From Candidatus Nanohaloarchaea archaeon (GTDB lineage Archaea > Nanohalarchaeota > Nanosalinia > Nanosalinales > Nanosalinaceae), in NCBI GenBank assembly GCA_014297435.1, contig JACOQA010000002.1:185961-249960 (forward strand): 64,000 nt of DNA, given 5' to 3'. The position numbers and the translations under genes are program-made. Position 1 is the stretch's first letter; each line of letters opens with the position of its first letter. Below are positions 29,801-50,033 of this stretch, piece after piece. The notes under the pieces were generated by a model that had not been told where the DNA came from, ran no database searches, and saw nothing but the letters and a program-made list of their open reading frames with translations.

Positions 29801-30112
29801 CCGATTTTCTGAGCCTTCAACTACCGTAACAGCTCTCACTTGCAAACTTCCTTCGGTCCCCTGTACATAATCGTTGCTTATGCTGCAGCCGTTGCTGCAT
29901 GAGAAAGTCATGGCGTCCGCGATCCATTCATCTTGTACATCACTCCATCTTTCTACACGTATACTGCTCGCGGAGTTGGATGTCGAAGCTGTAACTTTCT
30001 GTGACTCTCCGATTTTAAGATTGGTATCGGAGCTAGGTTGAATGTTTACTGCTGTTGAAAATGTTGTGAAAGCCGCCAATAGGATTATTATTGTAATTAA
30101 TTTGTTTCTCAT
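26858..30112 (-). CDS. Large secreted multidomain surface protein (PKD, carboxypeptidase-regulatory/PEGA-like and CARDB-like domains)
   Basis: Signal peptide; three LTV.V.DE..DP.EDA.V...TD..GE..F.L..G.Y repeats; PKD VEFDASDS...WDFD; amphipathic tail KKGLIDRLFGIF. Confidence 0.8.
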   Translation of the reverse strand: MRNKLITIIILLAAFTTFSTAVNIQPSSDTNLKIGESQKVTASTSNSASSIRVERWSDVQDEWIADAMTFSCSNGCSISNDYVQGTEGSLQVRAVTVVEGSENREKITLEWTQDSEPDNQAPGNFDLQNPSEDEIVSTTPTFEFSAEDRDGDDLDYTIKVLDNDGDRIRTLDSDDYDELRNVDEGDNVDFTLPDWRSLSYDREYIWKVEASDGTATSNSERNYFFTEERVKCGLDDETVTVDLNEDFANQDEEVTAAVNIENAESEDEEGELIIEADGDEVASDEITVDGYSDDDYEVDFDTEDLDTGDVDINAKFDVDSGACEGESFTSDEVTLNVNGDGGTLEVTVTDSEEDPLEDATVEVDNQEKETDDDGEVSFSLEEGEYDIDVSKYDYQDNSRDDVEVNSGEPTEETIELVEEGEEEQAELTVNVVDEDGDALEDIDVEAENGETTSEETDENGEVLFQLKPSEYEVTASDPDYETASKTVDLDEGEEESIDLELSELEDGTDEEVEADFDWSPNEPEAGEEVEFDASDSTGADSFIWDFDENGIPDKYGEEVDYTFDEEGDYDVELEVVGSEGSDTETETIEVGETDDDSDEEEVDLTVSVEDEDNDPIEDAEVEVENGDDESDETDDEGEAYFSLEPDDYEITVSKDGYETETRDIELEEGEPETEDFTLEREDDDSDEEDGELRITEVSGPNYVCRGESFTTRVTVSNRDSYGKVVEIQGTGLDGEVVRDIHVSGDGYRTKNIRFTNVQGSGSENYRVQVSNGGFDSVTRTIDVRDCGLGNVGGGEASSMTVEVSPREVVAGKSFKVSGYVDGVRGRSQADIEVGFERVASTTTQPDGYYQVYVRSNQVGQQNVEVSTNGASQSTAVSILPVATVEAVYAPREVFEGETYEICGDVSSQIDPKVYLLRDGRVVDSKTQSGEVCFDVSASDPGEHEFEVRAVTGGKSGSASTTVEVLELGNEVESFPDQIASVESEEGLVKVDLYNTHREVKRYQLELEGLPDTWVSQSERQVLLDTGEKKTVFFYLTPREEGEGTAEITVSSDGSEVFKKDVRVWAGGSKQPRKKGLIDRLFGIF

Positions 30113-30125
30113 TTTTCTTCACCCT

Positions 30126-32062: not shown

Positions 32063-32220
32063 ATTATTACTTTAGAGTTACAAAATTATTTATATCTGTC
32101 TCTGATATCTGGGTCGTGACAAGGGGTGTAACCATATATATTGTTGCGAAAGAATTGTGATGTTACTACGGAGTACAAATATAAAGATTTGCTGGTAGTA
32201 TAATTATGTGGTGACACAAA

Positions 32221-33438
32221 ATGGTAGGATCTAACACTAACGTAGGAGAAGATGACGACAGGATCTCGGCAGACGGCGGAGAACCTGACGAAGATCAAAA
32301 TCAGGACATGAACAGAGCAGGGAGAGCTAACAGCCTAACAGGTTTAGTAGATGAAACACTAGAGTCCCAAGAAGAGAGAGAAGAGACCGCACAACAAGCT
32401 ATGAATAATTGGGAAGGAAATGCGGCAGAAGAAACAAATGATGTCGTGGAGGAATACCAAGAACTCAGAGATGATGCAGGAGAAGCCACAGAATGGGAGT
32501 TCTCACAATCAACTGAGGCGGCAGAATTTGAAGATGATCTTGAGTATCATGGTGAGCTAGGCATAAGAGATTATGCTGAGACTCAGTCTGGTAAGATTGA
32601 AGGACTTACAGGAACGATAAGAAGATTCTCTGGCATGATAGCTGACAAACAAGATGAAGTACAGAGTAAGGAAGCCGACCTTGAAGGTCTTGAAGATGAA
32701 AGAGAAGAAGCTTACCAAGAAGTTGATAAAGAAGTAAACAACATGGACGATGAAGATTTCGGACAAATGACTGCAAGCGAGTTTAGAGACTCGAAGAGAG
32801 ACAGCGTGGACAGCGAATATGACAGAAAGGAGTCGGAAATTGAAGATGACATAGAATCTCTAAGAGAGAGCATTACAGATCTAAATGAAACACTTGCTCC
32901 GGCGACATCTGAGAGAGCAGACCGAAGAGAAGAAGCTCAAGCTGTCTACAATCAGTTCGCTGAAGAAGCAGAGGAAGTTGTTTCTGACAACTTCGGTAAG
33001 CTAAGAGAAAGCCTCGGAGTTCTAAGAGAACTTGAGGTTCAACAGACTAGACACGAGCAAAAATCTGTTGATAACGGTCTTGTAGATCAGAGACAGAGCG
33101 ATCAGGCAGACGCAAGAACCGAAGCGGCACTTGCATACGTTTCAGAGGCTCTAGATGAGATTGACCAGCTTGAAGATGCAGTTCAAGATCATTACAGGGT
33201 CGCTGAAGGTTTCTCAGAACTTACAGATGTAGAGACAAGAGAGCTAAAGGGAATCTACGGCGATCTTGTGGACGATGAAGCAGTAGACGGCGAAGTCGGC
33301 GAAGATCAGTTCGGTACTGAACTGCTTAGACAGAGAGTTTACGAGGCTGCCGAATCAATCACTGCTGACGGCTATGATTCCATCAGAGAACTTAGAGATA
33401 TCGCTGATGACATAGCTGGCGGTTACGAAGAGGAGTAA
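32221..33438 (+). CDS. Very acidic coiled-coil protein
   Basis: 405 aa ORF; SD GGTGA 6 nt before ATG; long heptad repeats. Confidence 0.75.
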   Translation: MVGSNTNVGEDDDRISADGGEPDEDQNQDMNRAGRANSLTGLVDETLESQEEREETAQQAMNNWEGNAAEETNDVVEEYQELRDDAGEATEWEFSQSTEAAEFEDDLEYHGELGIRDYAETQSGKIEGLTGTIRRFSGMIADKQDEVQSKEADLEGLEDEREEAYQEVDKEVNNMDDEDFGQMTASEFRDSKRDSVDSEYDRKESEIEDDIESLRESITDLNETLAPATSERADRREEAQAVYNQFAEEAEEVVSDNFGKLRESLGVLRELEVQQTRHEQKSVDNGLVDQRQSDQADARTEAALAYVSEALDEIDQLEDAVQDHYRVAEGFSELTDVETRELKGIYGDLVDDEAVDGEVGEDQFGTELLRQRVYEAAESITADGYDSIRELRDIADDIAGGYEEE

Positions 33439-35954: not shown

Positions 35955-36230
35955 ATGAGGGACCCTTGGAAATACATCGCCTTTCCGATCGCCGCAGTCT
36001 CAGGCTACTTCGTATCGATCGCGGCAACCCAACAGGTTAAGGCATACCTAGGTCTCTCAGATTTTCTAACAAGAGTAATTGTTTTAGCCGCTGTCGGACT
36101 TATAGCGGGTTTTATGGTTGATGAGGTTATACCTGCCTACATAGAGAAAGTTAAAGGTTCTCAAGGCGGTGTCAGAGGAGATGACTTCGGTGGCGGCGGA
36201 GGTGGAGACGATTTCGACTTCGACAACTAA
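35955..36230 (+). CDS. Two-TM membrane protein with a Gly/Asp-rich tail
   Basis: Hydrophobic hairpin; tail GGGGGGDDFDFDN. Confidence 0.7.
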   Translation: MRDPWKYIAFPIAAVSGYFVSIAATQQVKAYLGLSDFLTRVIVLAAVGLIAGFMVDEVIPAYIEKVKGSQGGVRGDDFGGGGGGDDFDFDN

Positions 36231-36678
36231 ACTACTGGTAGGTCTCGCCGGCATCTTGATGTTATCGGGCGCTGTCTCAGGATATTATTACGGCGATGGA
36301 TCAGGAAGTTCGCTTTCCACTGGTAATGCCGAATTTTCGATTCCACAGTATAATTCTCAGGGCGAAATCCTGACTAAGTTAGTGGCTCCGTTCCTACTAG
36401 TATTCATAATATTCTATCTAGGTCTTTTCAAAGCGCTCTGGTTTGCATATGCTGACGATGATGGACCTTTCCTAACAAAGAATAAGAAGGAGGAGAAGAA
36501 GCAGGTCAGGAAGTACGCCACAATAATATCGATCCTTATTTCGGCGATGATTATTCCTTCGCCGCTTTTCCATGCGTTGAATGATTTCACGGCGATAGTT
36601 TTCGGAGGTCTTACCTACATACTTCTGGGTGCTTTGGGCTTCGCATTTTTACTGGTTCTCTGGAGCATCTTCTCCTGA
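36211..36678 (+). CDS. Membrane protein of the PFLL-motif family; start uncertain (ATT 36211, ATG 36181 or 36169)
   Basis: Signal-like STSTTKLLVGLAG.., LVAPFLLVFIIFYLGL, three TMs; GGAGGTGG precedes the ATT. Confidence 0.65.
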   Translation: MSTSTTKLLVGLAGILMLSGAVSGYYYGDGSGSSLSTGNAEFSIPQYNSQGEILTKLVAPFLLVFIIFYLGLFKALWFAYADDDGPFLTKNKKEEKKQVRKYATIISILISAMIIPSPLFHALNDFTAIVFGGLTYILLGALGFAFLLVLWSIFS

Positions 36679-36722
36679 TTAAGCCCAGATAATTTATAAA
36701 TTAGGTGCGAATTAACTACTGT

Positions 36723-38210
36723 ATGAATAACAAAATAAAGGCGATTCTAGCCTCCTTCTTTGTCCAGATCTCAACAGTTGCAGCTCAAAATGATCCTATC
36801 GGAGTAGCGAGTGGGAGCGGAGATTTCCAAGGACTCATACCATTAATGTCTGATATTTTTGGATTGCAAATAGGTGGATGGCAGGACGTAGCAGTATTCG
36901 GAGCAACCATAGGTGTTTTCTGGTTATCATTCTATATTGTTATCGAGACAGCCTTGAGAAGGATGGGCAATGACTACCTGCTTAAGGCATCTGGATTAGA
37001 CGAAAGTTACAACTCTGATGGCGGTATGAGTAGCAGGGTCGCGCTATTCTCGCTTTTACTGGTAGTTTCTGCCTTCGGAGCAAACGGAGTATTCGGAATA
37101 ATCGAGGGTCTTCAGGGCGTTATTCTATTTGCTATGGGTTTCGGACTACTCGGAGCCATTCTCTGGGCTATCGGCGGAGGACTTATCTTCTCCGGAATGG
37201 GTGCAAAGGTCGCCGGCGAAGGAACCAAAGAATGGGGGGAAGCGGCCTCTGGAACCAAACAGTATCTCGAGGATGCGGTTGAAAACATGAACGCTGGTGG
37301 AGGTAACCAGGAGGAACATCTCGAGAAAGCTATTCAGGACATCAAAAATGCTGAAACAGACGTAGAAGAAATGCTCGAGATAGATATTCAGAGGATTGAA
37401 GATATTGCAGAGGAAATAAAGGAAGAGATAAGGTTTGAGGAAGATGAGATTGAAGATGAGAGAGAGATTCAACAGGTAATTAAAGACATTAGAAAGAAAA
37501 TTGACAATGCAGAACGTGTTAATCCTGACCAAAGAAGGGGGAGACCAGAACAAATTTATAAGTCTATTTTAGGCTTCAACGATCAAAATGGCACAAGTTT
37601 GGAGAAAGACTTGCAGGTATTGCACAGCCTGCTTAAAAATATAGATGGCGATCAAGAAGGAGAGATTTCTGAGATAGAGGACGAGGTTCAGGCGATTGAG
37701 GAAACAGTAGAGGAGTTAGAAAAAGACTTCCAAGCAGTAAGAAAACTTGGAGAGATAATACGGGACAGCGAAGCCCACTGGGAGAATATAAGAGAAAGAA
37801 TGGGCTCGGATGAAGAATTAGCCTTAGAAGAGTCACAAATTGAGAAATTGGAGGGAATCATGCAAGGTCTTGGCGATCTAGAGTCTCAGGCAATAGCAGA
37901 GCTAGAACAGCTAGAAAATCTTCTTGAAAAGCAGATTACTCTCGGAGAGGAAGAAATCAAGATGCTTAGTGAAGAAATAAGTGAGTCTAAGGGATTAGAG
38001 GCAAAAATGGAAGATCTTGAGAATACAATGGTCAAAAAACTTGACGGCGACGCCGATGTCTTGAAAGAACTAGGTAGAGCTATGAGGCTAGTCGAAGAAG
38101 ACATAATGCCTGAACTTCAAAGAATTGACAACTTAGATGAGAAAGAGGTCAAAAACGAGTCTAAAGCTCTTGAAAGAGTGAGGGAGGCAATAAGTACACT
38201 ATCCCAATGA
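36723..38210 (+). CDS. Multi-TM protein with a long acidic coiled-coil C-terminus
   Basis: Signal peptide, 3-4 TMs, then about 300 aa of heptads. Confidence 0.75.
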   Translation: MNNKIKAILASFFVQISTVAAQNDPIGVASGSGDFQGLIPLMSDIFGLQIGGWQDVAVFGATIGVFWLSFYIVIETALRRMGNDYLLKASGLDESYNSDGGMSSRVALFSLLLVVSAFGANGVFGIIEGLQGVILFAMGFGLLGAILWAIGGGLIFSGMGAKVAGEGTKEWGEAASGTKQYLEDAVENMNAGGGNQEEHLEKAIQDIKNAETDVEEMLEIDIQRIEDIAEEIKEEIRFEEDEIEDEREIQQVIKDIRKKIDNAERVNPDQRRGRPEQIYKSILGFNDQNGTSLEKDLQVLHSLLKNIDGDQEGEISEIEDEVQAIEETVEELEKDFQAVRKLGEIIRDSEAHWENIRERMGSDEELALEESQIEKLEGIMQGLGDLESQAIAELEQLENLLEKQITLGEEEIKMLSEEISESKGLEAKMEDLENTMVKKLDGDADVLKELGRAMRLVEEDIMPELQRIDNLDEKEVKNESKALERVREAISTLSQ

Positions 38211-38269
38211 ATATTTCAGTATATATTTAAACAAATGAAGAAAATGGGCTAGTAAGAGGTAATCAAAAC

Positions 38270-38413
38270 ATGGCATGCAGTGGAACGATTATACAGTGCG
38301 TCTCGAACAACCCGACAGTTGTGGCGGTTGGAGCGGTCGCAGGATTTGTACTAGCAAAAGCGATGAACATGCGTAAAAGAAACCGCGGAATGGGAGGCAT
38401 GGGAGGTTTCTAG
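38270..38413 (+). CDS. 47-aa single-TM microprotein (not in ORF track)
   Basis: MACSGTIIQCVSNNPTVVAVGAVAGFVLAKAMNMRKRNRGMGGMGGF; GAGGT SD upstream; stop 1 nt before the next ATG. Confidence 0.75.
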   Translation: MACSGTIIQCVSNNPTVVAVGAVAGFVLAKAMNMRKRNRGMGGMGGF

Positions 38414-38414
38414 G

Positions 38415-38669
38415 ATGGCCGATAAAAAGAAGTTCCACGAGTATATTTACGAGGTTGAAAACTGGATCGATGAGTTCGCGATCGCATTCCTATCGTTCGG
38501 GTTTATCGTGGCGTTCATCGAGATCCTTTTCTTCCAGTCCCAGCCGCTCACCTTCGCAACGTTAGATGAACAGATATACAAGTGGGTTCTGATGATTGGT
38601 GTCATGATAATCGGAAGAGAGCTATGGCTGCTCAACAGAAACGTAAGGGAGTATCTTGAAGGTGAATAA
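38415..38669 (+). CDS. Small two-TM membrane protein
   Basis: Two hydrophobic helices; part of the operon. Confidence 0.75.
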   Translation: MADKKKFHEYIYEVENWIDEFAIAFLSFGFIVAFIEILFFQSQPLTFATLDEQIYKWVLMIGVMIIGRELWLLNRNVREYLEGE

Positions 38670-38673
38670 CTGA

Positions 38674-39255
38674 GTGGCTTTCAACCTCAGTAAGTGGATT
38701 CAAACTATGGCGGATATGGACGTCTTCACCGTCCTTCTGCCCTTTTTGCTATCTCTAGCGCTCTTCAACTTTATACTTAAAGATCTAGACATATTTGATG
38801 AAGATACTTTAGGTCAGAAAACCGCTGGTCTGATCGCTTTAATACTCTCCCTATTTGTTGCTTACTTCCTTGTCGCGAATCCGTACTACCAGAACTTTTT
38901 CACGGATTACTTCGCAAGAATAGCTATAGGGATCGCAGGGCTGCTTGGTCTGTTGATATTCCTAGCATATGCGGGAGTCAAGCCAGGTAATGTGCCACTA
39001 GTTACAGCATTGGTCGTCCTAGGTACTGTAGGCGCATTCGCTATGTCTAGAGGATTTGACGCATTCCTCCCGACCTCGCAGGTTCCTGTACTGGACATGT
39101 CAATCCAGCAGATCTTCAGGGGTCTGGTTGATTCCGGAGTCATATATCTACTCATAATAGGTTTAGCAGTCTACTACATTGTCCACGATACAAGAGACGA
39201 TGAGGATCAGACCAGAACAGGAGAAGTGCTTGAATCACTTCTCGGAGCAGACTAG
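38674..39255 (+). CDS. Polytopic membrane protein (PFLL-motif paralog)
   Basis: MDVFTVLLPFLLSLALFNFILKDLDIF; AGGTGA SD. Confidence 0.75.
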   Translation: MAFNLSKWIQTMADMDVFTVLLPFLLSLALFNFILKDLDIFDEDTLGQKTAGLIALILSLFVAYFLVANPYYQNFFTDYFARIAIGIAGLLGLLIFLAYAGVKPGNVPLVTALVVLGTVGAFAMSRGFDAFLPTSQVPVLDMSIQQIFRGLVDSGVIYLLIIGLAVYYIVHDTRDDEDQTRTGEVLESLLGAD

Positions 39256-39265
39256 GTGATCAAAG

Positions 39266-39814
39266 ATGGGATTATTCGAGACACTGGTTCAAAACATGTC
39301 GCAGATGGACTTGTTCCATCTATTCTTCCCATGGCTCCTAATCACTGCAATCACTTACGGGGCTTTAAACAAGACAGAGATATTTGAAGAAGATACTATT
39401 GATGCCGCTGTTGCATTATCCGTAGGATTTATCTCGATGGCAGGTCTTCTTGCTTTCGTACCGCCAAACATGTTCGCTCATTTCGGCGCAGCCTTAGGAT
39501 TCATCGTTTTCGGCATCCTTGGTCTCTTGATCGTGCTTGCGATGGCAGGAGTTGATGTCAATGATCTCGCGGATGCAGGGGACACACCACTTCAAGGAAA
39601 TCCGATCGCGGTCGCAGGTATCGTACTCGTTGGAATAGCTTTAATCGGAGTTACCTTGACATATACTGACCTTGGAGGATTCTTGCCCGGGCTATCAGGA
39701 GATATTGATCTAAGCTTAAACATTGGGAGTGAAGCGATAATGCAGGTACTAACTATGGCGTTCCTGCTCGCGATGATCGGCGTAGTGATAAAGGTAACAG
39801 GAGAAGAAGGCTAA
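39266..39814 (+). CDS. Polytopic membrane protein (PFLL-motif paralog)
   Basis: MDLFHLFFPWLLITAITYGALNKTEIF; AGGTGA 6 nt before ATG. Confidence 0.75.
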   Translation: MGLFETLVQNMSQMDLFHLFFPWLLITAITYGALNKTEIFEEDTIDAAVALSVGFISMAGLLAFVPPNMFAHFGAALGFIVFGILGLLIVLAMAGVDVNDLADAGDTPLQGNPIAVAGIVLVGIALIGVTLTYTDLGGFLPGLSGDIDLSLNIGSEAIMQVLTMAFLLAMIGVVIKVTGEEG

Positions 39815-39825
39815 ATTAACCACTA

Positions 39826-39838
39826 TCTTTTTTTTCTA
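39826..39838 (+). terminator. Oligo-T archaeal terminator
   Basis: T-tract just after the stop of the membrane-protein operon, between convergent genes. Confidence 0.5.
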
Positions 39839-39872
39839 ATAAATTAGAATTAGGAAGAAAGAGAGGAATTTT

Positions 39873-40760
39873 TTACCAATCATCCATATCCATGTCTTTG
39901 ATATCGTCTTCTGAGATGTTGGAGTCGGTTTCGATGCCTCTCTCCTGCTTGATCTCCTGAACTAGTGTTGTTAGTTCACGGACGTTATCGACTAATGAAG
40001 GAAGTACCTGTTGGAAAGCTTTTTCGAGTCCTCCGATCCTTGACTGGTAGGAGTCGATATCTTGCTCTATCTCGTTCATCTTGTCAATGAACTGTGTCTG
40101 ATCCTCATCATCTCGTACCTCAAGATCGTGTACTCTTTCATCTAGTTCATCTACTTTCTGTTTCAATTCGTCTATTTCCGAGTATGCGTTTTCGAACTCT
40201 TCCTCAACTTTCTGGAAGTTCTCCGCTACAATTGTTTCTATTAGTTCCTCTACCTGCGAGGTTTGTCCTTCCAACTGCGGATTCTGTTGTTGCTGTGCGT
40301 TTTGCTGTGGCTGAGGGTTTCCGCCCATCGGCGGCTGCGGTTGCTGATTTGGTGCCGGTTCAGGGTTTGAATCGTTCATTCCATTATTTTCATCTTGATT
40401 GTATCCTTCGTCCATAGGCGACACCTGGTCTCCACCTCCCTGGTAAGGAGTCATAGGCTCAGGTCCTTCCGACTCTCCGGAAGCTTTAGAAGTAACTGCC
40501 TGTGTCACAGCTTTCTGTATCTCTTGATCTGAGTACTGACCCTGAAGCTCGCTCTTAATCTCGTCTTCAGAATAGCCTTGATCAAACATTTCGTTTACCT
40601 GTCTCTCGAGACCCGAACTGAAATCGTTTCCCCCTCCTAGTCCTGAGGACTGGCTCTGGTTTAAGCCACTTGAGCCGGACAGACTGTTAGAAGAACTGGA
40701 GGAACTAGTATCTGAAGAATCTTCTTCGTCTCTCAGCCGGCCAAAAAGTTTGAACTTCAT
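39873..40760 (-). CDS. Protein with a disordered N-half and a C-terminal coiled coil
   Basis: S/Q/P-rich linker, then VEELIETIVAENF...RIGGLEKAFQQVLPSLVDNVREL heptads. Confidence 0.75.
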   Translation of the reverse strand: MKFKLFGRLRDEEDSSDTSSSSSSNSLSGSSGLNQSQSSGLGGGNDFSSGLERQVNEMFDQGYSEDEIKSELQGQYSDQEIQKAVTQAVTSKASGESEGPEPMTPYQGGGDQVSPMDEGYNQDENNGMNDSNPEPAPNQQPQPPMGGNPQPQQNAQQQQNPQLEGQTSQVEELIETIVAENFQKVEEEFENAYSEIDELKQKVDELDERVHDLEVRDDEDQTQFIDKMNEIEQDIDSYQSRIGGLEKAFQQVLPSLVDNVRELTTLVQEIKQERGIETDSNISEDDIKDMDMDDW

Positions 40761-41218
40761 ATTTTGTCCTCTCCAAAGGCGTTACTACCTGTTTGTTCTT
40801 CCATGCTTTTAATCTTCCTGTCTATCATTCTTTCGACCTCGTCCTTTGTAACCCCTTCTCTTTCTGACATCAGCTTCTTTACCTCTTTTTTAGTCATAAA
40901 AGAAGACTTTATAGGGTTCATCAGCTCCATGTAGTTCTCTATCTCTTCTATTTCCTGTTTAGAGACGTATTTCCGTCTTTCACGGTTAAGATCTTTTATG
41001 TCGACCTCCATATTCGCCATTCTGTCCCTGATCTCTTCTATCTCGTCTTCAAGCTCCTGTATATCGCCTGAAAGATCTTTTGTCTTTTCTAGAACAGTGT
41101 CGTCAAGAGTGTTGACTCTAGCGTTAATGTTTCTGACCTGTTCCTCCAGGTCTCGGACTCTTCGGTTGAAGTCGTTGACCCGGTTCACGATCCGGTTCAT
41201 CAGGTCTTGCTGAGGCAC
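40757..41218 (-). CDS. Coiled-coil protein divergent from the pilus ATPase
   Basis: RRVRDLEEQVRNINARVNTLDD heptads. Confidence 0.75.
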   Translation of the reverse strand: MPQQDLMNRIVNRVNDFNRRVRDLEEQVRNINARVNTLDDTVLEKTKDLSGDIQELEDEIEEIRDRMANMEVDIKDLNRERRKYVSKQEIEEIENYMELMNPIKSSFMTKKEVKKLMSEREGVTKDEVERMIDRKIKSMEEQTGSNAFGEDKI

Positions 41219-41247
41219 ACCTTTTATTCACCAACGGTTGAATATTA

Positions 41248-43509
41248 ATGGTAATGGCTGTACAGGACAAGGACGTCTTTGATTACGAGTACGATGACGA
41301 GTCAGGAAAGATAGAGATAAACCTTCTAGGCTCGGTCTACGGCGCCTCAATCGAAGACTACCCCGAAGTAATGTCCCGAGTAATAAACATACTACAAGAA
41401 GTGCCCGAAGCAACCTCCGTAGTGCTATCAGAATCAAGGGACTACGAGTACGATCAGGAACAAGTACATCTGCTGAGAGAGATATCTAACGCAATAAGAG
41501 ACATATCCTCACAAGGGTACCTATCTCAAAGCGTCAGAACAGACAAATGTGAATCGCTTTACTCCGAACAACTTCCCGAAGTCCAGAGAATAGTTGTAGA
41601 CCAGTTAAGAAAAGATCCTGTCGGTGCATACGTACAGCTTAGAAGGAAAGAAAGACACCTAAAACAGCAGAGGAACGACTCGTATCCTCAGAGACAGCGC
41701 TGCATCAAATTCTTCATACAGGACGTAGTTAATCCGGTAAAAGATAGACTGGAGGAGTGCCAGCTTATCCAAGATGCGGTGAGAGAAGATTTTGTTACAG
41801 GCCACCATGTAGGCGACAGAGAAGTTTACAGAGAGTATTTCCATCCATTGGTTCGTCCTAACTTCATGCTTACGAAGTTCATGAGCTTGCCTCCGGAAAG
41901 AGGCAAAGAAGTAGACCGCTACACTGTTAAAGAGGATGTAGAGGTGTCGATCTACGAAGTGCCAGACCAGGTGCAGCCGGTTTACCATGTCGATCCTCCG
42001 GAGTTCAGTCTTCCGGAAGAGAAGTACCGCTTGCTGGATGCCGCAAGAAGATTCCTCGCCTCTCACCAGCCAGAGTCGGGGGAGTTCGCGAGACCGGAAA
42101 GAATGCGAGATGTATTCCAGAACATCGGGAGAGACATGATCCGTGATATCTCACAGCAGATGGACATACAGCTATCGGGAGAAGAAATGGAGGAAATGAC
42201 CTCAATACTAAACCGTTATACTTCCGGACTAGGCGTACTAGAGCTTTTACTTGCTGATCCAAAGATTCAGGATGTTTTTATCAACTCTCCTATCGGAAAC
42301 TCCCCTATCTACATCAAACACCAAGATTATGAGGAATGTGAGACTAATCTAATTCCTACGAAGGAAGAGGCGGAATCTTGGGCTACACGTTTCAGGATAA
42401 AGTCAGGAAGACCTTTAGACGAAGCTAACCCGGTACTTGACACAGAAGCAGAAGTGCCTGGCGGAAGAGCAAGAGTAGCAATTATACAGGAAAACCTTTC
42501 GCCGGAAGGATTAGCATTCGCGTTCAGAAGGCACAGATCGAAAGCATGGACGCTGCCATTATTCATACACGAAAACTTCATCAACTCTATAGGCGCAGCA
42601 TTACTATCGTTTATCGTGGACGGCAACAGATCGGTTCTTTTCGCAGGTACGAGAGGTGCGGGTAAAACGTCGCTCCTTTCAGCCTCGATGCTCGAATTAC
42701 TGAAAAAAGACAGAATTGTAACCGTTGAAGACACGTTAGAACTTCCTATAAGGCAAATGAAGGACTTGGGGTTCAACCTTGAGTCCATGAAATCTCGTTC
42801 GGTTATTACTCAGGTTGAGAATGAGTTGGCGGCTCAGGATGCGATCAGAACCTCTCTCAGACTAGGCGATTCGGCACTTGTTATTGGAGAGGTCAGATCG
42901 GATGAAGCTAAAACACTTTACGAGGCTATGCGTGTTGGAGCCGTTGCAAACTTTGTAGGAGGAACAATTCACGGAGAAGATGCTTACTCAGTATTTGACA
43001 GGGTTGTAAACGACTTGAACGTTCCGAAAACTTCATTCAAGGCAACAGATATTATTGTACAGGTAAACAAGATCCAGTCGCCAGACGGATTAGAAACTTA
43101 CAGAAGAGTCACCGGGATCACCGAGGTCAGGAAAGAGTGGACCGATGATCCTCAAGAGGAAGGAGCTTTCGTCGATCTGATGCGTTACGACTCGAACAAG
43201 GACGAGCTGGTCCCTACAGACACTTTGTTGAACGGAGAATCACTTATCCTGAACAGGATCGCCGAGAACATCCGCGAATGGAAGAACGACTGGGAGGCGG
43301 TCTGGAACAACATCCAGCTTAGAAAAGATATTAAGGAAGAGATCGTCAGAAAAGCCGAAGAGGAAGGAGAAGAATACCTAGAAGCAGACTTCACTGTAAA
43401 GGCAAATCAGAGATTCCACATTCTTTCGAACAAGGTAGGCGAAGAGTATGGAGGACAAGATCCGGAAAGAATTTTCGCCCGCTGGAAGGAATGGCTTAAC
43501 CAGCAGTAG
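41248..43509 (+). CDS. Type II/IV secretion-system (pilus assembly) ATPase with a long N-terminal extension
   Basis: Walker A GTRGAGKTS, Asp box TVEDTLEL, LRLGDSALVIGEVRSDEA, GTIHG. Confidence 0.92.
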   Translation: MVMAVQDKDVFDYEYDDESGKIEINLLGSVYGASIEDYPEVMSRVINILQEVPEATSVVLSESRDYEYDQEQVHLLREISNAIRDISSQGYLSQSVRTDKCESLYSEQLPEVQRIVVDQLRKDPVGAYVQLRRKERHLKQQRNDSYPQRQRCIKFFIQDVVNPVKDRLEECQLIQDAVREDFVTGHHVGDREVYREYFHPLVRPNFMLTKFMSLPPERGKEVDRYTVKEDVEVSIYEVPDQVQPVYHVDPPEFSLPEEKYRLLDAARRFLASHQPESGEFARPERMRDVFQNIGRDMIRDISQQMDIQLSGEEMEEMTSILNRYTSGLGVLELLLADPKIQDVFINSPIGNSPIYIKHQDYEECETNLIPTKEEAESWATRFRIKSGRPLDEANPVLDTEAEVPGGRARVAIIQENLSPEGLAFAFRRHRSKAWTLPLFIHENFINSIGAALLSFIVDGNRSVLFAGTRGAGKTSLLSASMLELLKKDRIVTVEDTLELPIRQMKDLGFNLESMKSRSVITQVENELAAQDAIRTSLRLGDSALVIGEVRSDEAKTLYEAMRVGAVANFVGGTIHGEDAYSVFDRVVNDLNVPKTSFKATDIIVQVNKIQSPDGLETYRRVTGITEVRKEWTDDPQEEGAFVDLMRYDSNKDELVPTDTLLNGESLILNRIAENIREWKNDWEAVWNNIQLRKDIKEEIVRKAEEEGEEYLEADFTVKANQRFHILSNKVGEEYGGQDPERIFARWKEWLNQQ

Positions 43510-43519
43510 GTGATAAGAG

Positions 43520-45667
43520 ATCGAAGACGAAGAACAAGAAAGGATAGAAGAGATTGTAAACGATCTTGACCGCGACCTAGAGATGCCGCCCTATGACGAA
43601 GGCTCTCAAAAAGGTTATTCCCGTGAATACAAGAACTATAAGGAGGACGAGGAGATAGAGAGGTCCAAGACAAGGTACGAAAGGCTTTGCGTCACTATGG
43701 CGTCGTATCTTAACTTGAAGGCGGAGGAAGATGCACAGGAAAAACTCTCTCCTCCACTAAGACTACTAGGTTGGGATATAACTCCAGGGATGGTTTTATC
43801 CGCCTCTGTAGGGGTCGGAATATCATCTTTCTTCGCTTGGTTCATGCTTTTCGCCATTAACATGGCTTTAGGCAATATAATTCCTTTCTCGATGATGATT
43901 ATTTCAGCTATCGTGCCTATCGGGGCAGGTGTTTACACATTCTACAAGCCTATCTACGCTGCCAAGAATAAGGTAATCCAGTCCTCAGGAGAAATGATTC
44001 TTTCCATACTCTACATGGTTATCTACATGCGTTCTTCTCCCAATATAGAGGGCGCTATACGCTTCGCAGCACTTAACCTGGATGGTCCGATTTCAAAAGA
44101 CCTGAAAGGTGTTTTATGGGATTTAGAAGTAGGTAACTACGCCAGGATAGAGGACTCGCTGGAAGACTATACTAAGGCGTGGAAGAACTATAATGATGAT
44201 TATCTCGAGTCTTTACAACTTTTGAGAGCTGCAACAAATGAACCTAACAAGGATAGAAGAGAAAGACTGCTTCAAGACTCAATTGACCGAATTTTAGATG
44301 GAACTCAGGAGAAGATGAAGCACTACGCCCAAGGCTTGAAGACTCCTGTCATGATTCTAAACGCTATGGGGGCTATGCTTCCGGTTCTAGGTATGATCAT
44401 GCTTCCTCTTATCTCAGTTTTCATGGGTGGTGCGATCACAGAAATGCACTTATTCCTCCTGTTCAACGTGATGCTTCCATCATTCCTCTACTGGTTCATG
44501 CAGAAGGTACTTAGTTCAAGACCTCCGACCGTAAGCTCTCAGCCAACCAGTAAGAACGATTTACCTGAGAGGGGAAAGTATCAAGTCGAAGTTTTGGGCA
44601 AGCAGCTAAAAGTTCCTACTTGGCCTATCGGACTTATAGTGTTTCTGACGGTAGGGATGTTCGGTTTTATAGGCTACCTGATCTTTCCTCACGTCTATCC
44701 AATCACAACTGAATTAGGGTATATTCCTGACCTATTCTCTACCGCCGGTGGAGAACCTAACTCTCTTATGATGCTGATGAGAAGCGTTTCGATAACGCTT
44801 GGTCTCGGTCTTGGAATTGGCATATCAAAGATACTAGGTAACAAAGCAAGAAAACAGGCTGAAGAACATTTGGAGAAGATTGAGGGTCAGTTCCCTACTG
44901 CGCTTTTCCAGCTAGGGAACAAGATTTCAGGGGGAACTCCTGCAGAGCTTGCTTTGGAGCAGGCAGCAGAATCAACCTCGGATCTGGAGATTTCAGGTCT
45001 TTTCCAGTACGCATCGAGAAACGTGAGGGACATGGGTATGACTTTCGAGGAATCTCTTTTCAGCGACAAGTACGGTGCTTTGAGGAAGTATCCTTCGAAG
45101 ATGATCAATACAGTTATGAGAGCCATACTCGAGTCCTCTGAAAAGGGTACTAAGATGGCTTCTATGGCGATGATGACAATCTCTCGTTATCTTGACAATA
45201 TTCACAAGACGCAGGAAGATCTCAACGATCTGATGGAAGAAACTACAACAACTATCCAGATGCTTGCCTATCTTCTAGCTCCTATTGTATCTGGTGTCGC
45301 GGTCGGTATGTCTCAAACGATTATTAATGCAATGTATAAGCTCAGTCAATCATTTAATCAGGCACAACAGAGCCTTCCTGATTCGGCTGCCGGTGGTGCA
45401 GGAGGGTCTGGTACAAGCTTTGGAGGGCTTATCAGTAATCTTGATACTGCTATTTCACCTGAAATCCTACAGTTTGTTGTGGGGATTTACTTGATCCAGT
45501 TGCTCTTTATTCTCTCAACGTTCTACATGAAGATTGAGCATGGAGAGAATATGACTTACAGAAACATGTTCATCGGAAAGGTACTTATTGTCGGAATGAT
45601 ATTCTATAGTGTAACCCTAGTGATTATTTCACTGCTCTTCGGAGGGATTGTCGCGAATGTGGCGTAA
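43520..45667 (+). CDS. TadC/GspF-like pilus assembly platform protein; start at ATC 43520 or ATG 43583
   Basis: Two T2SSF-like halves (ILSILYMVIYMRSSPNIEGAIRFA; QFPTALFQLGNKISGGTPAELAL); follows the ATPase. Confidence 0.85.
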   Translation: MEDEEQERIEEIVNDLDRDLEMPPYDEGSQKGYSREYKNYKEDEEIERSKTRYERLCVTMASYLNLKAEEDAQEKLSPPLRLLGWDITPGMVLSASVGVGISSFFAWFMLFAINMALGNIIPFSMMIISAIVPIGAGVYTFYKPIYAAKNKVIQSSGEMILSILYMVIYMRSSPNIEGAIRFAALNLDGPISKDLKGVLWDLEVGNYARIEDSLEDYTKAWKNYNDDYLESLQLLRAATNEPNKDRRERLLQDSIDRILDGTQEKMKHYAQGLKTPVMILNAMGAMLPVLGMIMLPLISVFMGGAITEMHLFLLFNVMLPSFLYWFMQKVLSSRPPTVSSQPTSKNDLPERGKYQVEVLGKQLKVPTWPIGLIVFLTVGMFGFIGYLIFPHVYPITTELGYIPDLFSTAGGEPNSLMMLMRSVSITLGLGLGIGISKILGNKARKQAEEHLEKIEGQFPTALFQLGNKISGGTPAELALEQAAESTSDLEISGLFQYASRNVRDMGMTFEESLFSDKYGALRKYPSKMINTVMRAILESSEKGTKMASMAMMTISRYLDNIHKTQEDLNDLMEETTTTIQMLAYLLAPIVSGVAVGMSQTIINAMYKLSQSFNQAQQSLPDSAAGGAGGSGTSFGGLISNLDTAISPEILQFVVGIYLIQLLFILSTFYMKIEHGENMTYRNMFIGKVLIVGMIFYSVTLVIISLLFGGIVANVA

Positions 45668-45761
45668 AGGTAACGTGGAAACAGTTGCCATGGTAGGAGT
45701 ATTTCTCGCTATAGTCACGATGGCATTCCTTGCGGTCTGGCTGGAGATGATGCCAGTATGA
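45657..45761 (+). CDS. 34-aa pilin-like microprotein (not in ORF track)
   Basis: MWRKG-NVETVAMVGVFLAIVTMAFLAVWLEMMPV, a class III signal-like sequence; overlaps both neighbours. Confidence 0.65.
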   Translation: MWRKGNVETVAMVGVFLAIVTMAFLAVWLEMMPV

Positions 45762-45940
45762 AAAGGAAAGGGATGAACTTTGACATGGTGCTTTGGATAT
45801 TTGTAGCGATCTTTCTGCTTCTTGTGCTGGCGCCAACATCGTTAACATTAGTAAATAATGCTCAAGGCTCAGTTGAAGGATGTTCGATGTGGGCTTCAAT
45901 CCTCTCAGATATAACCGGCGGCATGGTGCAGTTCTGTTAG
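45758..45940 (+). CDS. Small pilin-like protein
   Basis: MKRKG-MNFDMVLWIFVAIFLLLVL class III signal peptide; two Cys. Confidence 0.75.
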   Translation: MKRKGMNFDMVLWIFVAIFLLLVLAPTSLTLVNNAQGSVEGCSMWASILSDITGGMVQFC

Positions 45941-45949
45941 AGGTGATTA

Positions 45950-47824
45950 GTGATTATAAAGCATATATTTGGTATTGCGGTGATGGTAATACTAGGATCA
46001 GCTCTTATGGGGTCACTTAACTCCATAAAGGTCAACTCTCTTGATCCGAGCGCTGAAAACACCTCGCAAACCATCGAGGAATTTGGTCGAGACAAGTCAG
46101 TTAGAATAGGTTGGGATGAGGAGGAAGAGGAAAAAACAACTCAAACTATTGCAAGGAAGCAATTTGAAGGTTTGTTGGTTTGGAATATGCTTGCAGCGAG
46201 CGATTGTATGTTACTTCAGGTTATAGATACAGGAAATACTAAAAGCACGCTAAACGATCTTAGAAAAGATGGAGATCCTGCTTATACAGGTTTTGGGGGT
46301 TTTGGACCTCTTCTAAGAACAGGTTTTGAAGGTAGGTGTGCGGAAGCGGATAGTGTAGGTTATCAGATAAAGAGGACTGCGTATAGTATGGCTAAAGTCC
46401 CACAGTTTAATGCAGAGAGAGTTGGTTCACCCGCACACGATATGGAAGGGAACTTTGGAAGAGTAGGTTTCAATGTTAGTGAGAGCTTTCATATCGATAC
46501 AAAGGGTGATAATGGCATCCTCTTAGGTTTCCACGGTAAATATGAATCGCCGGATTTAGTCAACCAGATTCAATCTATCTACTCAGATGTACAAGGTAAA
46601 GACAATCTACCTGATTTCTGGATAGCCCAAAGAGCTTCAATAATAATACCTCCGAATTTAGCGCCTTCGGGAAGTAGAACTTCTGTTTTTAAGCTGTATC
46701 ATAGAGAGGGGGAAAACAGTGAATCGCTCATAAATTTTGATGGTGTATTCAATGGCTTTGGATATACGGATAATCCTAAAGGTCACAAGCTATATGCATG
46801 GAGACCTTCGGCGCATGAAGTGCCATGGGTTTTCGAGAACCAGAGAGGTCTCCATTCTATTGATGTAAACAACGGAGAGACGATGCTGGATACAGCACTA
46901 AGAAGAGGAGAGTGGCATTTCTGTGAGGGTGCTGAAGGACAAATAATAAGCAAAGCAAGATCCTTTTCCAACACGGGAGAGGCGTCCGGTAATAATCCGA
47001 AAAAAGAGGACTCGGTTTTCCCAAAGATAACACTTTTTGATCCTGGAGAGGGTGACGGATGTGAGCCTGGAGGTCCTGAGGGTTTCCCTGAGCGTGTAAC
47101 CACTAGTAGTTCTTACCAGGATACAATATCGTGCTCTAGACAGGAAGCTGCGAATAAAAAGATCCCTGAGGGTAGTAGAACACTTCTAGGATATGATGGG
47201 CAAGAAAAAATGTTTGTAGGTTATGGTTGCGGTCTTCAAGAGCATAATTTTGATTTTGGAAGCCATGATTTTAACAGAAATAACCACTATGATGGAGAAG
47301 TAACTTTCTATACGCCTGCGGTCTATAGTTCATGTTCTTACAATCATAAATGGTACAATGTTCTTCCTCTAAAAGACGGTATCGCTCCTGAGGATGAAAA
47401 AACTCTCAAAGCTGGTGAAGCAGTTAATTTTGATCTAAATGAGCATAATGAGATAAAAAAACTTCAAATAACGTTTGAAAAAAGAGATGGTGCGGACTTA
47501 GATGTTTCAATGGGAGAGAAAAAAATCTCAATAAACTCTTCTAATAACAAAGCTGGGGTTGCTGAGGACTCGACATCAATTGAAGGCGGATATGATACGG
47601 GCGTATATGAATTAACATATCGGCGTGAAAGCGCAGTTGGTATCCCTGGAGGCGAAGATGCTTCGTCAGGTAAACTCATACTTCGTGCTGAATCTGGGGA
47701 GGCCAATAGAAAGGTTTTCCTTTCGACAGGAGTATATGATATAAACTCGGTTGAAGTAAATGCTGATTCGGGTCAAGTATCTTTGAGAGATGTAAGTCTC
47801 TATTCTTATCCTACTCAATGTTGA
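45950..47824 (+). CDS. Large Cys-rich minor pilin/adhesin-like protein (paralog A)
   Basis: N-terminal hydrophobic helix; colinear with 48021-50033. Confidence 0.7.
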   Translation: MIIKHIFGIAVMVILGSALMGSLNSIKVNSLDPSAENTSQTIEEFGRDKSVRIGWDEEEEEKTTQTIARKQFEGLLVWNMLAASDCMLLQVIDTGNTKSTLNDLRKDGDPAYTGFGGFGPLLRTGFEGRCAEADSVGYQIKRTAYSMAKVPQFNAERVGSPAHDMEGNFGRVGFNVSESFHIDTKGDNGILLGFHGKYESPDLVNQIQSIYSDVQGKDNLPDFWIAQRASIIIPPNLAPSGSRTSVFKLYHREGENSESLINFDGVFNGFGYTDNPKGHKLYAWRPSAHEVPWVFENQRGLHSIDVNNGETMLDTALRRGEWHFCEGAEGQIISKARSFSNTGEASGNNPKKEDSVFPKITLFDPGEGDGCEPGGPEGFPERVTTSSSYQDTISCSRQEAANKKIPEGSRTLLGYDGQEKMFVGYGCGLQEHNFDFGSHDFNRNNHYDGEVTFYTPAVYSSCSYNHKWYNVLPLKDGIAPEDEKTLKAGEAVNFDLNEHNEIKKLQITFEKRDGADLDVSMGEKKISINSSNNKAGVAEDSTSIEGGYDTGVYELTYRRESAVGIPGGEDASSGKLILRAESGEANRKVFLSTGVYDINSVEVNADSGQVSLRDVSLYSYPTQC

Positions 47825-48020
47825 GGTAAGATGTTTTCTAAGAGTCATTAACCTATAAATTCAAAGATTAAGAACTTTCATTATATGTATAAATCTCTCA
47901 AAACTGTTAGCCTGGCAACCTCAAAACATAATTATGGTCGCCTTTATGAAAGTAAGAGGAGTGAGATACGATTCTAATAGATTCTGCCGGTTTTGAGACA
48001 GTTTCTAGAGGTGATTAGCG

Positions 48021-50033
48021 ATTATAAAGCATATATTTAGTATAGCGGTCATGGTAATACTTATTTCGTCGTTTATGGCTGTGCTTAACTCTATAAAAGT
48101 AGAATCATTCGATCCGGCTACAAACAACGCATCCTCAACGATAGAGGATTTTGGAAGAGATAAATTCATTGAAATAGGTAGAGATACTACCTTAAATGAT
48201 GGTAATGGTGAGATAAAAGATGATTCCCAATTCGCAAAAAGGCAGTTTGAGGGTTTGTTGGTTTGGAATATGCTTGCAGCGAGCGACTGTATGTTGCTAC
48301 ATATAATTGAGAACAATAACCCTGAATTACACCTAAAACACCTCAGAGATAACAAAGAAACAGGTTATGTAGAGTTCTTCGGCTGGTCAGAACTGAAGAA
48401 GGCAGATTTCGATATGACCTGCGCACAGGCAGGAAGTATAGGATTCGAAGTAAATAGGCAAAGCCCCACAACTATAATTACTATGGATGCAAAAAGGGCA
48501 GCTCAACCAGGAAAGGACATGGAGGGCAACTTTGGTAAAACACGGTTTAATATAAGCAAAAGCTTCAGTATAGATTCATTAGGAGATGACGGTATTCTAT
48601 TAGGCCTTAAGACGAAATTTGAGGAAGCAGGGGCTTTAGATGCGGCTTTTGGCGAATTGGAAGTATTTGATTCGGGTCCGGACTCGGCGAACATGCCCGA
48701 CTTCTGGGCGGGTCAAAGGGTTTCGGTTCTCCGGCCTCCAAGCCTAGATCCAATGAACTATGGAGATTTGTATAACCGCCATATGTACATGATACATCCT
48801 AGTACAGATAATAATAACAAGGAAGACAGGGCAGGCTATCTCCATTTCGGTTCACAGTTCAATGATTTTGGCTATACAAATGATCCTGTAGCTTATAAGT
48901 TCTCAGCGTGGCGTCCTTCAGTGCACGATGGGACTTGGGTCTTTGCTAATGGTAGGTCGCCTCATAAAATTAAGAAGGATCTCTCTGTAGGTGATGGTGA
49001 AAGAACAGGTCGAAAAGTGCTTATAAACTCAATAAAGAACGGAGAATGGGTTTTCTGTAAAGGAATGGAGGGATATGTTATTTCGAAAGCTCAAAGGTTC
49101 AGTAACCTAGGAGAGGCGTCCAGTAATAACCCGAAAAAGGAGGATACAGTTCTACCTAAAATTCAGATAACTGAGCCGGGAAATGGCACTAACTGTCAAG
49201 AGGGCGGGCCTGATGGTTTCAACGAGTTCGTTGGCCATCAAAGTAAGATTAATAGAAATGGAGTAGAATTTAGCTGTAGTAGACTACAAGCGGCGAACAA
49301 AAAAATAACGGATAAAGAAGCCTTAAAAACTGAAATAGGTAAGCAAGATGGAGAAATGCAGTATTTAACTTATGGGTGTGGTCTAACACAACATACTTTT
49401 GATTTTAACGATTTTGAATGGTCTGGAGTTACTGTAACGGTTTCAGAGACTGGTCAAGGCTCTACACGTGAAACGCGTGCGGGTCAGCATTATCAGGGTG
49501 CGATGACTTACTATACTCCGGGAATGTGGAAGAGCTGTCCGTCCGGTTATGAGAACTATGAAATTCTCTCACTAAAAGACAATCTCGGTGAAAATGGCTA
49601 CAAAGAACTTGGCGGCGGTGATAACTCGATAAGTTTTGGGAACGACCAATTTAGTAATATTCAAGGCGTCGAAATTATTTACGAAAAAAGAGATGGTGCT
49701 GAACTTGAGCTCGATATAGGCGGTCAGACCATCTCTGTGGAATCTTCGGGTTCTAACTCGCCAGGAAAACTTTCTATAGGTTCCAACACGGATGAGTTAG
49801 ATGTTAGCTACGAAACAGGTGTTTATATGCTTGACTTGGTCTCATTCGATGGAATCGCTGGAGGCGACGGTTCTAACTCTGCCTCCCTCATAGAAGAGGG
49901 AGGGGAAGGTCAAGGTATAGGAGCTATGGGAGCTGACTACAACAATATTGAATCATTTGATATTACCAAGCAAGGTTCAGGTGAAATCATTTTGAGGGAG
50001 GTGAGAGTAGATGCAAAGCCCACAGAGTGCTAG
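48021..50033 (+). CDS. Large Cys-rich minor pilin/adhesin-like protein (paralog B); start at ATT 48021 or ATG 48051
   Basis: Shares RQFEGLLVWNMLAASDCMLL, DMEGNFG, AWRPS.H, NNPKKED, YGCGL and EKRDGA with paralog A; similarity extends upstream of the ATG. Confidence 0.7.
   Translation: MIKHIFSIAVMVILISSFMAVLNSIKVESFDPATNNASSTIEDFGRDKFIEIGRDTTLNDGNGEIKDDSQFAKRQFEGLLVWNMLAASDCMLLHIIENNNPELHLKHLRDNKETGYVEFFGWSELKKADFDMTCAQAGSIGFEVNRQSPTTIITMDAKRAAQPGKDMEGNFGKTRFNISKSFSIDSLGDDGILLGLKTKFEEAGALDAAFGELEVFDSGPDSANMPDFWAGQRVSVLRPPSLDPMNYGDLYNRHMYMIHPSTDNNNKEDRAGYLHFGSQFNDFGYTNDPVAYKFSAWRPSVHDGTWVFANGRSPHKIKKDLSVGDGERTGRKVLINSIKNGEWVFCKGMEGYVISKAQRFSNLGEASSNNPKKEDTVLPKIQITEPGNGTNCQEGGPDGFNEFVGHQSKINRNGVEFSCSRLQAANKKITDKEALKTEIGKQDGEMQYLTYGCGLTQHTFDFNDFEWSGVTVTVSETGQGSTRETRAGQHYQGAMTYYTPGMWKSCPSGYENYEILSLKDNLGENGYKELGGGDNSISFGNDQFSNIQGVEIIYEKRDGAELELDIGGQTISVESSGSNSPGKLSIGSNTDELDVSYETGVYMLDLVSFDGIAGGDGSNSASLIEEGGEGQGIGAMGADYNNIESFDITKQGSGEIILREVRVDAKPTEC

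Follow-up and report, generated by a model that had tools for sequence, protein, structure and literature searches.

The stretch of DNA analysed here (the window: 64,000 nt, positions 185,961 to 249,960 of contig JACOQA010000002.1, or G000:C8:185961-249960) belongs to the draft genome of a Candidatus Nanohaloarchaea archaeon (G000; approximately 1.0 Mb, 44% G+C, 15 contigs), encodes strongly acidic proteins and carries a type IV pilus-like locus. We compared the translation starts of this locus, and subsequently of the whole genome, with those of related genomes, principally G001, a sister species of the same genus (94% identity), and G012, a relative with a complete genome. The comparison indicates that a minority of genes in this nanohaloarchaeon, about 1% of those comparable, very probably start at AUU, AUC or AUA and not at AUG, GUG or UUG. 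Hereafter, ATH denotes ATT, ATC or ATA, and NTG denotes ATG, GTG or TTG. Judged from the alignments, the ATH codons are real, occupy the codon at which orthologs carry NTG and precede sequence that evolves as protein; on these grounds, G000 has seven well-supported ATH starts plus two ambiguous ones.

Within the pilus-like locus, several small membrane proteins are encoded upstream of a FlaI/TadA-type ATPase gene, which adjoins a gene for a TadC/FlaJ-type polytopic membrane protein, the arrangement that marks a pilus or Tad locus. The relevant features are as follows.

41248 to 43509, + strand: FlaI/TadA-like secretion ATPase (PF00437, 57 bits), whose TAG stop (43507-43509) overlaps the Shine-Dalgarno (SD) sequence of the next gene
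43508 to 43514, + strand: SD AGGTGAT, whose GGTGA ends 6 nt short of ATC 43520
43520 to 45667, + strand: TadC/FlaJ-like membrane platform gene with a predicted ATC start (PF00482, 29 bits; cut-off 25.2)

ATC 43520 is, with high probability, the start of the TadC-like gene. It is preceded by GGTGA at 43509-43513 and then by TAAGAG, and the original prediction, made from the letters of the window, had correctly described its SD geometry, the nearby in-frame stop, which is TAA 43514-43516, and the 21 added acidic codons; no NTG occurs before ATG 43583, 21 codons on. The codon aligned to ATC 43520 is NTG in 21 of 23 family orthologs (ATG in 14, GTG in 2 and TTG in 5), and the 21-codon extension upstream of ATG 43583 is kept as protein, with the pattern M-(D/E)EEKERLxDIVxxLDRDVE-x-PPY. 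The TadC-like gene of G001 also begins with ATC, and all five differences between G000 and G001 within these 63 nt are synonymous. ATC at this position was found only in these two genomes and is not conserved across the lineage. Read-through or frameshifting from the ATPase gene into the TadC-like gene was considered and rejected: the ATC lies 13 nt past the first base of the ATPase stop, in another frame, with the TAA between.

Downstream of the TadC-like gene, the window encodes two large proteins, ending at 47824 and 50033, which are paralogs with 44% identity and gave no family match in a family-model search. The second of them provides the other well-supported start of the window.

48008 to 48014, + strand: SD GAGGTGA of paralog 2, whose TGA (48012-48014) is an in-frame stop
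48021 to 50033, + strand: paralog 2, with its likely start at ATT 48021 (or ATA 48024)

The spacer between the SD and ATT 48021 is TTAGCG, and, as had been claimed, no NTG occurs between TGA 48012 and ATG 48051, which lies 10 codons into the gene. G001 has a single copy of this gene, beginning ATG ATA AAC ACA ATA TTC, and its ATG aligns with the ATT of both G000 paralogs; in six other genera, the orthologs have a canonical start a few residues before the hydrophobic helix. ATT 48021, or the ATA codon that follows it, is therefore likely to be the start of paralog 2.

A genome scan for an SD followed by ATH, as proposed at the outset, uncovered further ATH genes outside the pilus-like locus, and an open reading frame-by-open reading frame comparison with G012 (631 gene pairs) was conducted in addition. 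This comparison flagged 61 of the 631 pairs, most of them short chance BLAST extensions into leaders, and six flagged genes stood up: metG, atpI, the TadC-like gene, a gene for a secreted acidic protein (C1:42415), a RimK-like ligase gene and a pilin-like gene. The secreted acidic protein begins with ATC in G000 and G001 and with ATT in G012, and its signal peptide precedes the first NTG. The RimK-like ligase has ATT in G000, ATC in G001 and ATG in G002, G013 and G018, while the pilin-like protein (IKGQYLAVES) has ATT in G000 and G001, ATA in G002, ATG in G013 and TTG in G007, G012 and G018. For atpI (V-ATPase subunit I), which has ATC in G000, 22 of the 30 loci carry ATC, ATT or ATA, four carry ATG at the same codon and four carry ATG one codon before; the protein continues K-P-x-x-M-T-K in all loci, and its AAR CCN codons vary only synonymously. 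For ATC 43520, ATT 48021, metG and the secreted, RimK-like and pilin-like genes, the stretch from the upstream stop to the conserved N-terminus is free of in-frame NTG; this does not hold for ATT 45953 (which has GTG 45950) and ATT 36211 (which has GTG 36202 and others), the two ambiguous sites of the window discussed below. Separately, G000 and G012 share a gene that is 88% identical (MIKRLKELF...), and conservation between them continues for about 17 codons ahead of its ATG (G000:C10:129073-129153), a stretch that may represent a small RNA element or a conserved leader.

Among these genes, metG, encoding methionyl-tRNA synthetase (MetRS), leaves the least room for another start. At G000:C10:41970, outside the window, AGGTGA is followed by 7 nt and ATT; the first NTG comes 81 codons after the ATT, past the HIGH motif (PYIHGVPHLGN), and Pfam tRNA-synt_1g positions 2-391 correspond to MetRS residues 6-414 counted from the ATT. 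Judged from the reading frame, only the ATH start can yield an active enzyme. Of the 27 family loci, 22 have ATT or ATC as the start codon, 2 have ATG, and GTG, TTC (G018) and GTC (G006) occur once each; in the 22 ATT/ATC loci it sits 6-8 nt after AGGTG(A/G), and 18 of these 22 have no in-frame NTG from the upstream stop, often the TGA of the SD itself, to the ATH. Database records agree in part: the NCBI proteins P0010 and P0076 begin with M and then the residues encoded after the ATT codon of loci L083 and L096, and the NCBI pipeline already sets the start at the ATT equivalent in some MetRS records from cultured nanohaloarchaea, with one record starting at an upstream ATA and one at the GTG of the SD. 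Of 120 database MetRS relatives, 55 are truncated and lack the N-terminal SALPY/HIGH region. In most family genomes (L076-L101), a promoter-like GTTTAAAGAATTG motif, resembling a B recognition element and TATA box, lies about 23 nt before the metG SD, a position from which the mRNA would probably begin just ahead of the SD with a very short leader.

The spacing between SD and start codon provides a further line of evidence. The original prediction had noted that ordinary genes here have GGTGA followed by 6 nt and ATG, and its three examples, like all the coordinates it quoted, proved accurate on re-examination.

30110 to 30118, - strand: control spacer and ATG 30112 of an ordinary gene, 6 nt after GGTGA
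32210 to 32223, + strand: control GGTGA, 6 nt and ATG 32221
39255 to 39268, + strand: control GGTGA, 6 nt and ATG 39266

We surveyed 50 GGTGA sites at which the TGA terminates the reading frame and 100 or more open codons follow. The first NTG fell within 12 nt of GGTGA in 35 of them; the distance was 6 nt at 21 sites and 9 nt at 8, while 0, 3 and 12 nt each occurred twice. When all five 5-mers of GGAGGTGAT were placed in one register for open frames of at least 150 codons, the aligned first-NTG spacing (n = 176) peaked at 6 (41 cases) and 7 (33 cases), with only 2 cases at spacing 3. All four ATH sites of the window lie at an aligned spacing of 5-6, against a genome mode of 6-7 nt; the claim that they share ordinary SD geometry thus stands for all four, but canonical candidates beside ATT 45953 and ATT 36211 had been missed or discounted. 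We then tested enrichment among codons at least five codons upstream of the first NTG, in open frames of at least 150 codons, at spacings 0-12. In G000, ATH accounted for 7 of 24 codons at spacing 6 versus 13 of 194 at other spacings (one-sided Fisher p = 0.0024). Among these seven, orthologs confirm four, one is probably false, and the other two are C10:24496 and C15:544.

Several observations weigh against ATH initiation. The same enrichment test was not significant in G012 (3 of 20 versus 9 of 144, p = 0.17), so that the ATH excess is clearest in the genus of G000. In-frame GTG codons lie one and three codons upstream of ATT 45953 and ATT 36211, respectively, and atpI has a conserved ATG five codons downstream in 30 of 30 loci. 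Some candidates did not hold. For the ATA at C8:93608, in a methionine aminopeptidase gene, homology starts at a later ATG, and the hit is probably false; the ATT at C10:24496, in a polyprenyl synthetase gene, was not accepted, given that the Pfam domain fits a later ATG as well, and no close ortholog of this gene was found among five genomes; the ATT at C15:544, a scan candidate at spacing 6, was likewise not accepted. Finally, the G000 assembly lacks a 16S rRNA gene (no match to Rfam RF01959), although its completeness is given as 99%, and the anti-SD sequence was for this reason taken from the SD consensus of the genome and from a published table (PMC10783764). Another candidate, the ATC at C8:178431 in a formyltransferase gene, was set aside since an ATG with the typical MxxVFLG lies six codons on.

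The in-frame GTG codons bear on the strongest rival explanation, namely that the ambiguous genes start at neighbouring canonical codons (GTG 45950 in one gene; GTG 36202 or ATG 36181 in the other) and that the ATT merely follows. We rate this as a real possibility, somewhat short of an even chance. All three codons are in frame, GTG 36202 is kept in G001, and NTG is far commoner than ATH at good spacing: at spacing 6, there are 50 NTG and 13 ATH, of which approximately 4-7 are real. The first of the two genes encodes paralog 1.

45940 to 45946, + strand: SD GAGGTGA of paralog 1
45950 to 47824, + strand: paralog 1, a large secreted or anchored protein, with its start at GTG 45950 or ATT 45953 (spacings 3 and 6)

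The GAGGTGA-TTAGTG-ATT geometry described for ATT 45953 is present, but the in-frame GTG 45950 contained in its spacer, 3 nt after GGTGA, had been overlooked. Against this GTG stand its spacing of 3, used by 2 of 176 first-NTG starts versus 41 at spacing 6, and its replacement by GCG in paralog 2 and AAG in G001, whose ATG aligns with the ATT. On balance, we lean slightly towards ATT 45953 as the start of paralog 1. The similarity of the two paralogs upstream of the first ATG, which the original prediction had pointed out, is borne out by a shared stretch of 58 nt comprising the SD, the spacer and the first 11-12 codons: from the SD to ATGGTAATACT (45938-45996 and 48006-48064), there are four differences (93% identity), compared with about 60% identity beyond. 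One of the four differences makes or destroys the GTG. The shared stretch points to gene conversion or to constraint on the initiation region.

The second ambiguous gene lies at the upstream end of the locus.

36198 to 36205, + strand: SD-like GGAGGTGG, at an aligned spacing of about 5 nt, which includes the in-frame GTG 36202
36211 to 36678, + strand: small membrane protein gene with a candidate, ambiguous ATT start

ATT 36211 indeed follows GGAGGTGG, with the spacer AGACG, but GTG 36169, ATG 36181, GTG 36190 and GTG 36202 are all in frame within 14 codons upstream. Of the two neighbours proposed, GTG 36202 lies inside the SD itself, and ATG 36181 is ACG in G001, which keeps ATT 36211 and the preceding GTG GAG ACG. 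Furthermore, in at least 10 of 24 other loci, including those of other genera, the protein starts M-(T/S)-(S/L)-T-S-x-(K/R) at the codon aligned with the ATT or one before. This conservation is of limited weight because the region overlaps the upstream gene in another frame: positions 36211-36230 form a 20-nt overlap with the gene at 35955-36230 (C-terminus GGGGGDDFDFDN), and across the family the start region of the 36211 gene is made from the acidic tail codons of that upstream gene. ATT 36211 is thus only a little better than an even candidate for the start of this gene. Taking the four window sites together, orthologs give good support to non-AUG initiation at ATC 43520 and ATT 48021, and it is plausible at ATT 45953 and ATT 36211, which stand beside canonical candidates.

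A second explanation dispenses with pairing to initiator tRNA: the SD would by itself position the codon, and the chain would be opened by an elongator tRNA for Ile, Phe or Val, or independently of the codon, at least for metG. It draws on the metG loci of sister families: at a distance of 5-6 nt from the SD, 7 of 13 have TTC or TTT in frame and 2 of 13 have GTC, in addition to the TTC of G018 and the GTC of G006 within the family. With AUG, these codons have no more than the middle U in common. The loci concerned are L199-L207 and L238-L241 in sister families and L080 and L085 within the family. The remaining sister-family loci comprise one ATG without an SD and three high-GC ATC-GAY loci without a clear SD. 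In one sister genus, an indel in G026 shifts the GTG of the SD out of frame, and the metG TTY is unmoved. On the other side, several of these loci offer other possible starts, either an in-frame GTG within the SD or, slightly further downstream, an ATA or GTG, and G000 has a normal initiator tRNA. Moreover, we know of no archaeal cellular mRNA for which codon-independent or elongator-tRNA initiation is established. We consider this explanation very unlikely. Either the TTY and GTC codons of metG are highly unusual starts, or translation begins at another position. Including the sister families, metG has TTC or TTT in 8 genomes and GTC in 3, and no more than about 4 of 40 have ATG or GTG. Should the TTY and GTC codons prove to be genuine starts, metG would be kept at D-T-Y and not D-T-G order-wide, which would point to selection for a weak start. 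That selection keeps the metG start without a third-position G across an order of nanohaloarchaea is conceivable, though rather doubtful. Were it so, MetRS synthesis would hinge on the tolerance of initiation, through how much Met-tRNAi-aIF2 is available or how stringent aIF1 is, and metG would parallel, in archaea, the infC AUU circuit of bacteria; in a bolder form, metG would be translated without Met-tRNAi when the enzyme is scarce.

A start at the next canonical codon (ATG 43583 or ATG 48051), with the upstream similarity reflecting leader RNA or a recent duplication, is also very improbable. It could appeal to the 93%-identical 58 nt at the 5' ends of the paralogs, which might result from gene conversion or RNA-level constraint, and to the downstream ATG that atpI keeps in every locus. 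Yet the position of ATG 43583 is Leu, Gln or Arg in at least 7 of 23 TadC-like loci, so that it is not the start used by the family, and the exclusively synonymous differences between G000 and G001 in the TadC extension likewise speak for translation. A start at ATG 48051 would retain 12 of the 18 hydrophobic residues, cutting the N-terminal membrane helix of paralog 2, and a start at the downstream NTG of metG would remove the HIGH motif. That the ATH codons stem from errors in sequencing or assembly, or mark decaying pseudogenes, is scarcely credible even for a draft of 15 contigs, given that the independent G001 assembly has ATH too (in the TadC-like gene, the 36211 gene, metG, atpI and the secreted, RimK-like and pilin-like genes), that 22 of 27 family genomes have ATH for metG and 22 of 30 for atpI, and that the reading frames are intact over 600-750 codons.

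Initiation at ATH by the ordinary machinery, the reading we prefer, can be pictured as follows. A strong SD of the GGAGGUGAU type would pair with the 3' end of 16S rRNA, and this pairing would bring the ATH codon, which lies 5-7 nt further downstream, into the P site. There, the first two bases would be paired by the ordinary initiator tRNA (CAU), with the mismatch at the third tolerated, and the protein would, on this assumption, begin with methionine. In the TadC-like gene and atpI, the upstream stop overlaps the SD, and terminating ribosomes may help by re-initiation. In bacteria, AUH initiation is weaker than AUG initiation; by extension from that work, a lower initiation efficiency would be expected, amounting to a dosage or regulatory setting. 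The supported ATH sites mostly have long SDs, and AGGTGAT and GAGGTGAT match 7-8 nt of the Nanohaloarchaea anti-SD UCACCUCC listed in PMC10783764; such long matches make an SD-anchored placement of the near-cognate codon likely.

We also considered whether peculiarities of the initiation apparatus could cause ATH starts. An unusual initiator tRNA was rejected, as G000 has one ordinary tRNA(CAU), which shows A1:U72 and whose anticodon stem contains three G:C pairs. The factor aIF1 is present (G000:C9:141889-142194); its N-terminal four-Cys knuckle (CxxC...CxC) is kept in 21 of 26 family genomes (L210-L236) and missing in G000, G002, G003, G014 and G019, and its loss was rejected as a cause, since it does not track the family-wide ATH starts. 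In addition, ARAGORN identified an intron-containing tRNA-Ile(TAT) at G000:C1:125776-125926, beside a tRNA-Ile(GAT), and this UAU tRNA, in place of a modified CAU tRNA, may read AUA.

The original prediction had linked non-AUG initiation to a low stoichiometry of pilus components. Comparison across genomes shows that the ATH habit is not specific to the pilus, is older than the genus of G000 and extends to translation starts throughout the lineage; because of this breadth, the pilus-specific stoichiometry reading is not established. The occurrence of AtpI (one per complex), the TadC-like platform and the pilin-like protein among the ATH genes fits, but does not show, a role in dosage. Regarding the locus itself, the NCBIfam FlaI and TadA models match the ATPase at 41248-43509 only below their cut-offs, and a family-model search placed none of the small membrane proteins at 36211-39814 in a family above its cut-off. 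The pilin-like protein with the K-G-Q motif and an ATT start is encoded on another contig, outside the pilus-like locus.

These starts have practical consequences. Gene finders restricted to ATG, GTG and TTG shorten the proteins concerned, so that the TadC-like protein would lack the 21 conserved residues at its N-terminus and the membrane anchor of paralog 2 would be reduced by a third, and such truncation errors carry into metabolic and completeness estimates for small symbiont genomes. Conversely, main frames opening with AUU, AUC or AUA, two of them conserved across the family, constitute a natural system for studying the strictness of archaeal start-codon selection, and the ATH gene set makes it possible to ask whether weak starts determine how much protein is made or exert feedback on initiation.

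The genes described here are new members of a class already known, that of genes with non-AUG initiation. NCBI translation table 11 permits ATT, ATC and ATA starts, and in bacteria infC and pcnB start at AUU, the unusual codon of infC being conserved across species. As in infC and pcnB, a near-cognate AUH codon at normal SD spacing here opens a full-length essential protein, for example MetRS, and, as in infC, the unusual codon is conserved across related species, namely in metG and atpI. Unlike in infC and pcnB, archaeal start selection is carried out by aIF1, aIF1A and aIF2 and not by IF3, and the gene set here consists of metG, atpI and genes for TadC-like, pilin-like and surface proteins. 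To our knowledge, MetRS, AtpI and TadC have no role in policing start codons; unlike for infC, no feedback loop is evident, and the likeness remains an analogy.

Within archaea, a full-text literature search, which covered few subscription journals, found no paper on ATH starts in this group. In Haloferax volcanii, according to a ribosome profiling study, about 30% of putative alternative initiation sites were at near-cognate codons, which the authors set aside to limit false positives (PMC7261190). Compared with the alternative or extra sites described there, the ATH codons here would be the only possible start of the main conserved frame. The factor aIF1 has been reported to discriminate against non-canonical codons (PMC6237735). 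In a study describing an SD-prepositioned archaeal pre-initiation complex, the model mRNA has GGAGGUGA, 5 nt and AUG, the same geometry as that found here. Whereas that study describes the rejection of non-canonical codons, the lineage examined here appears to accept them in a fixed set of genes.

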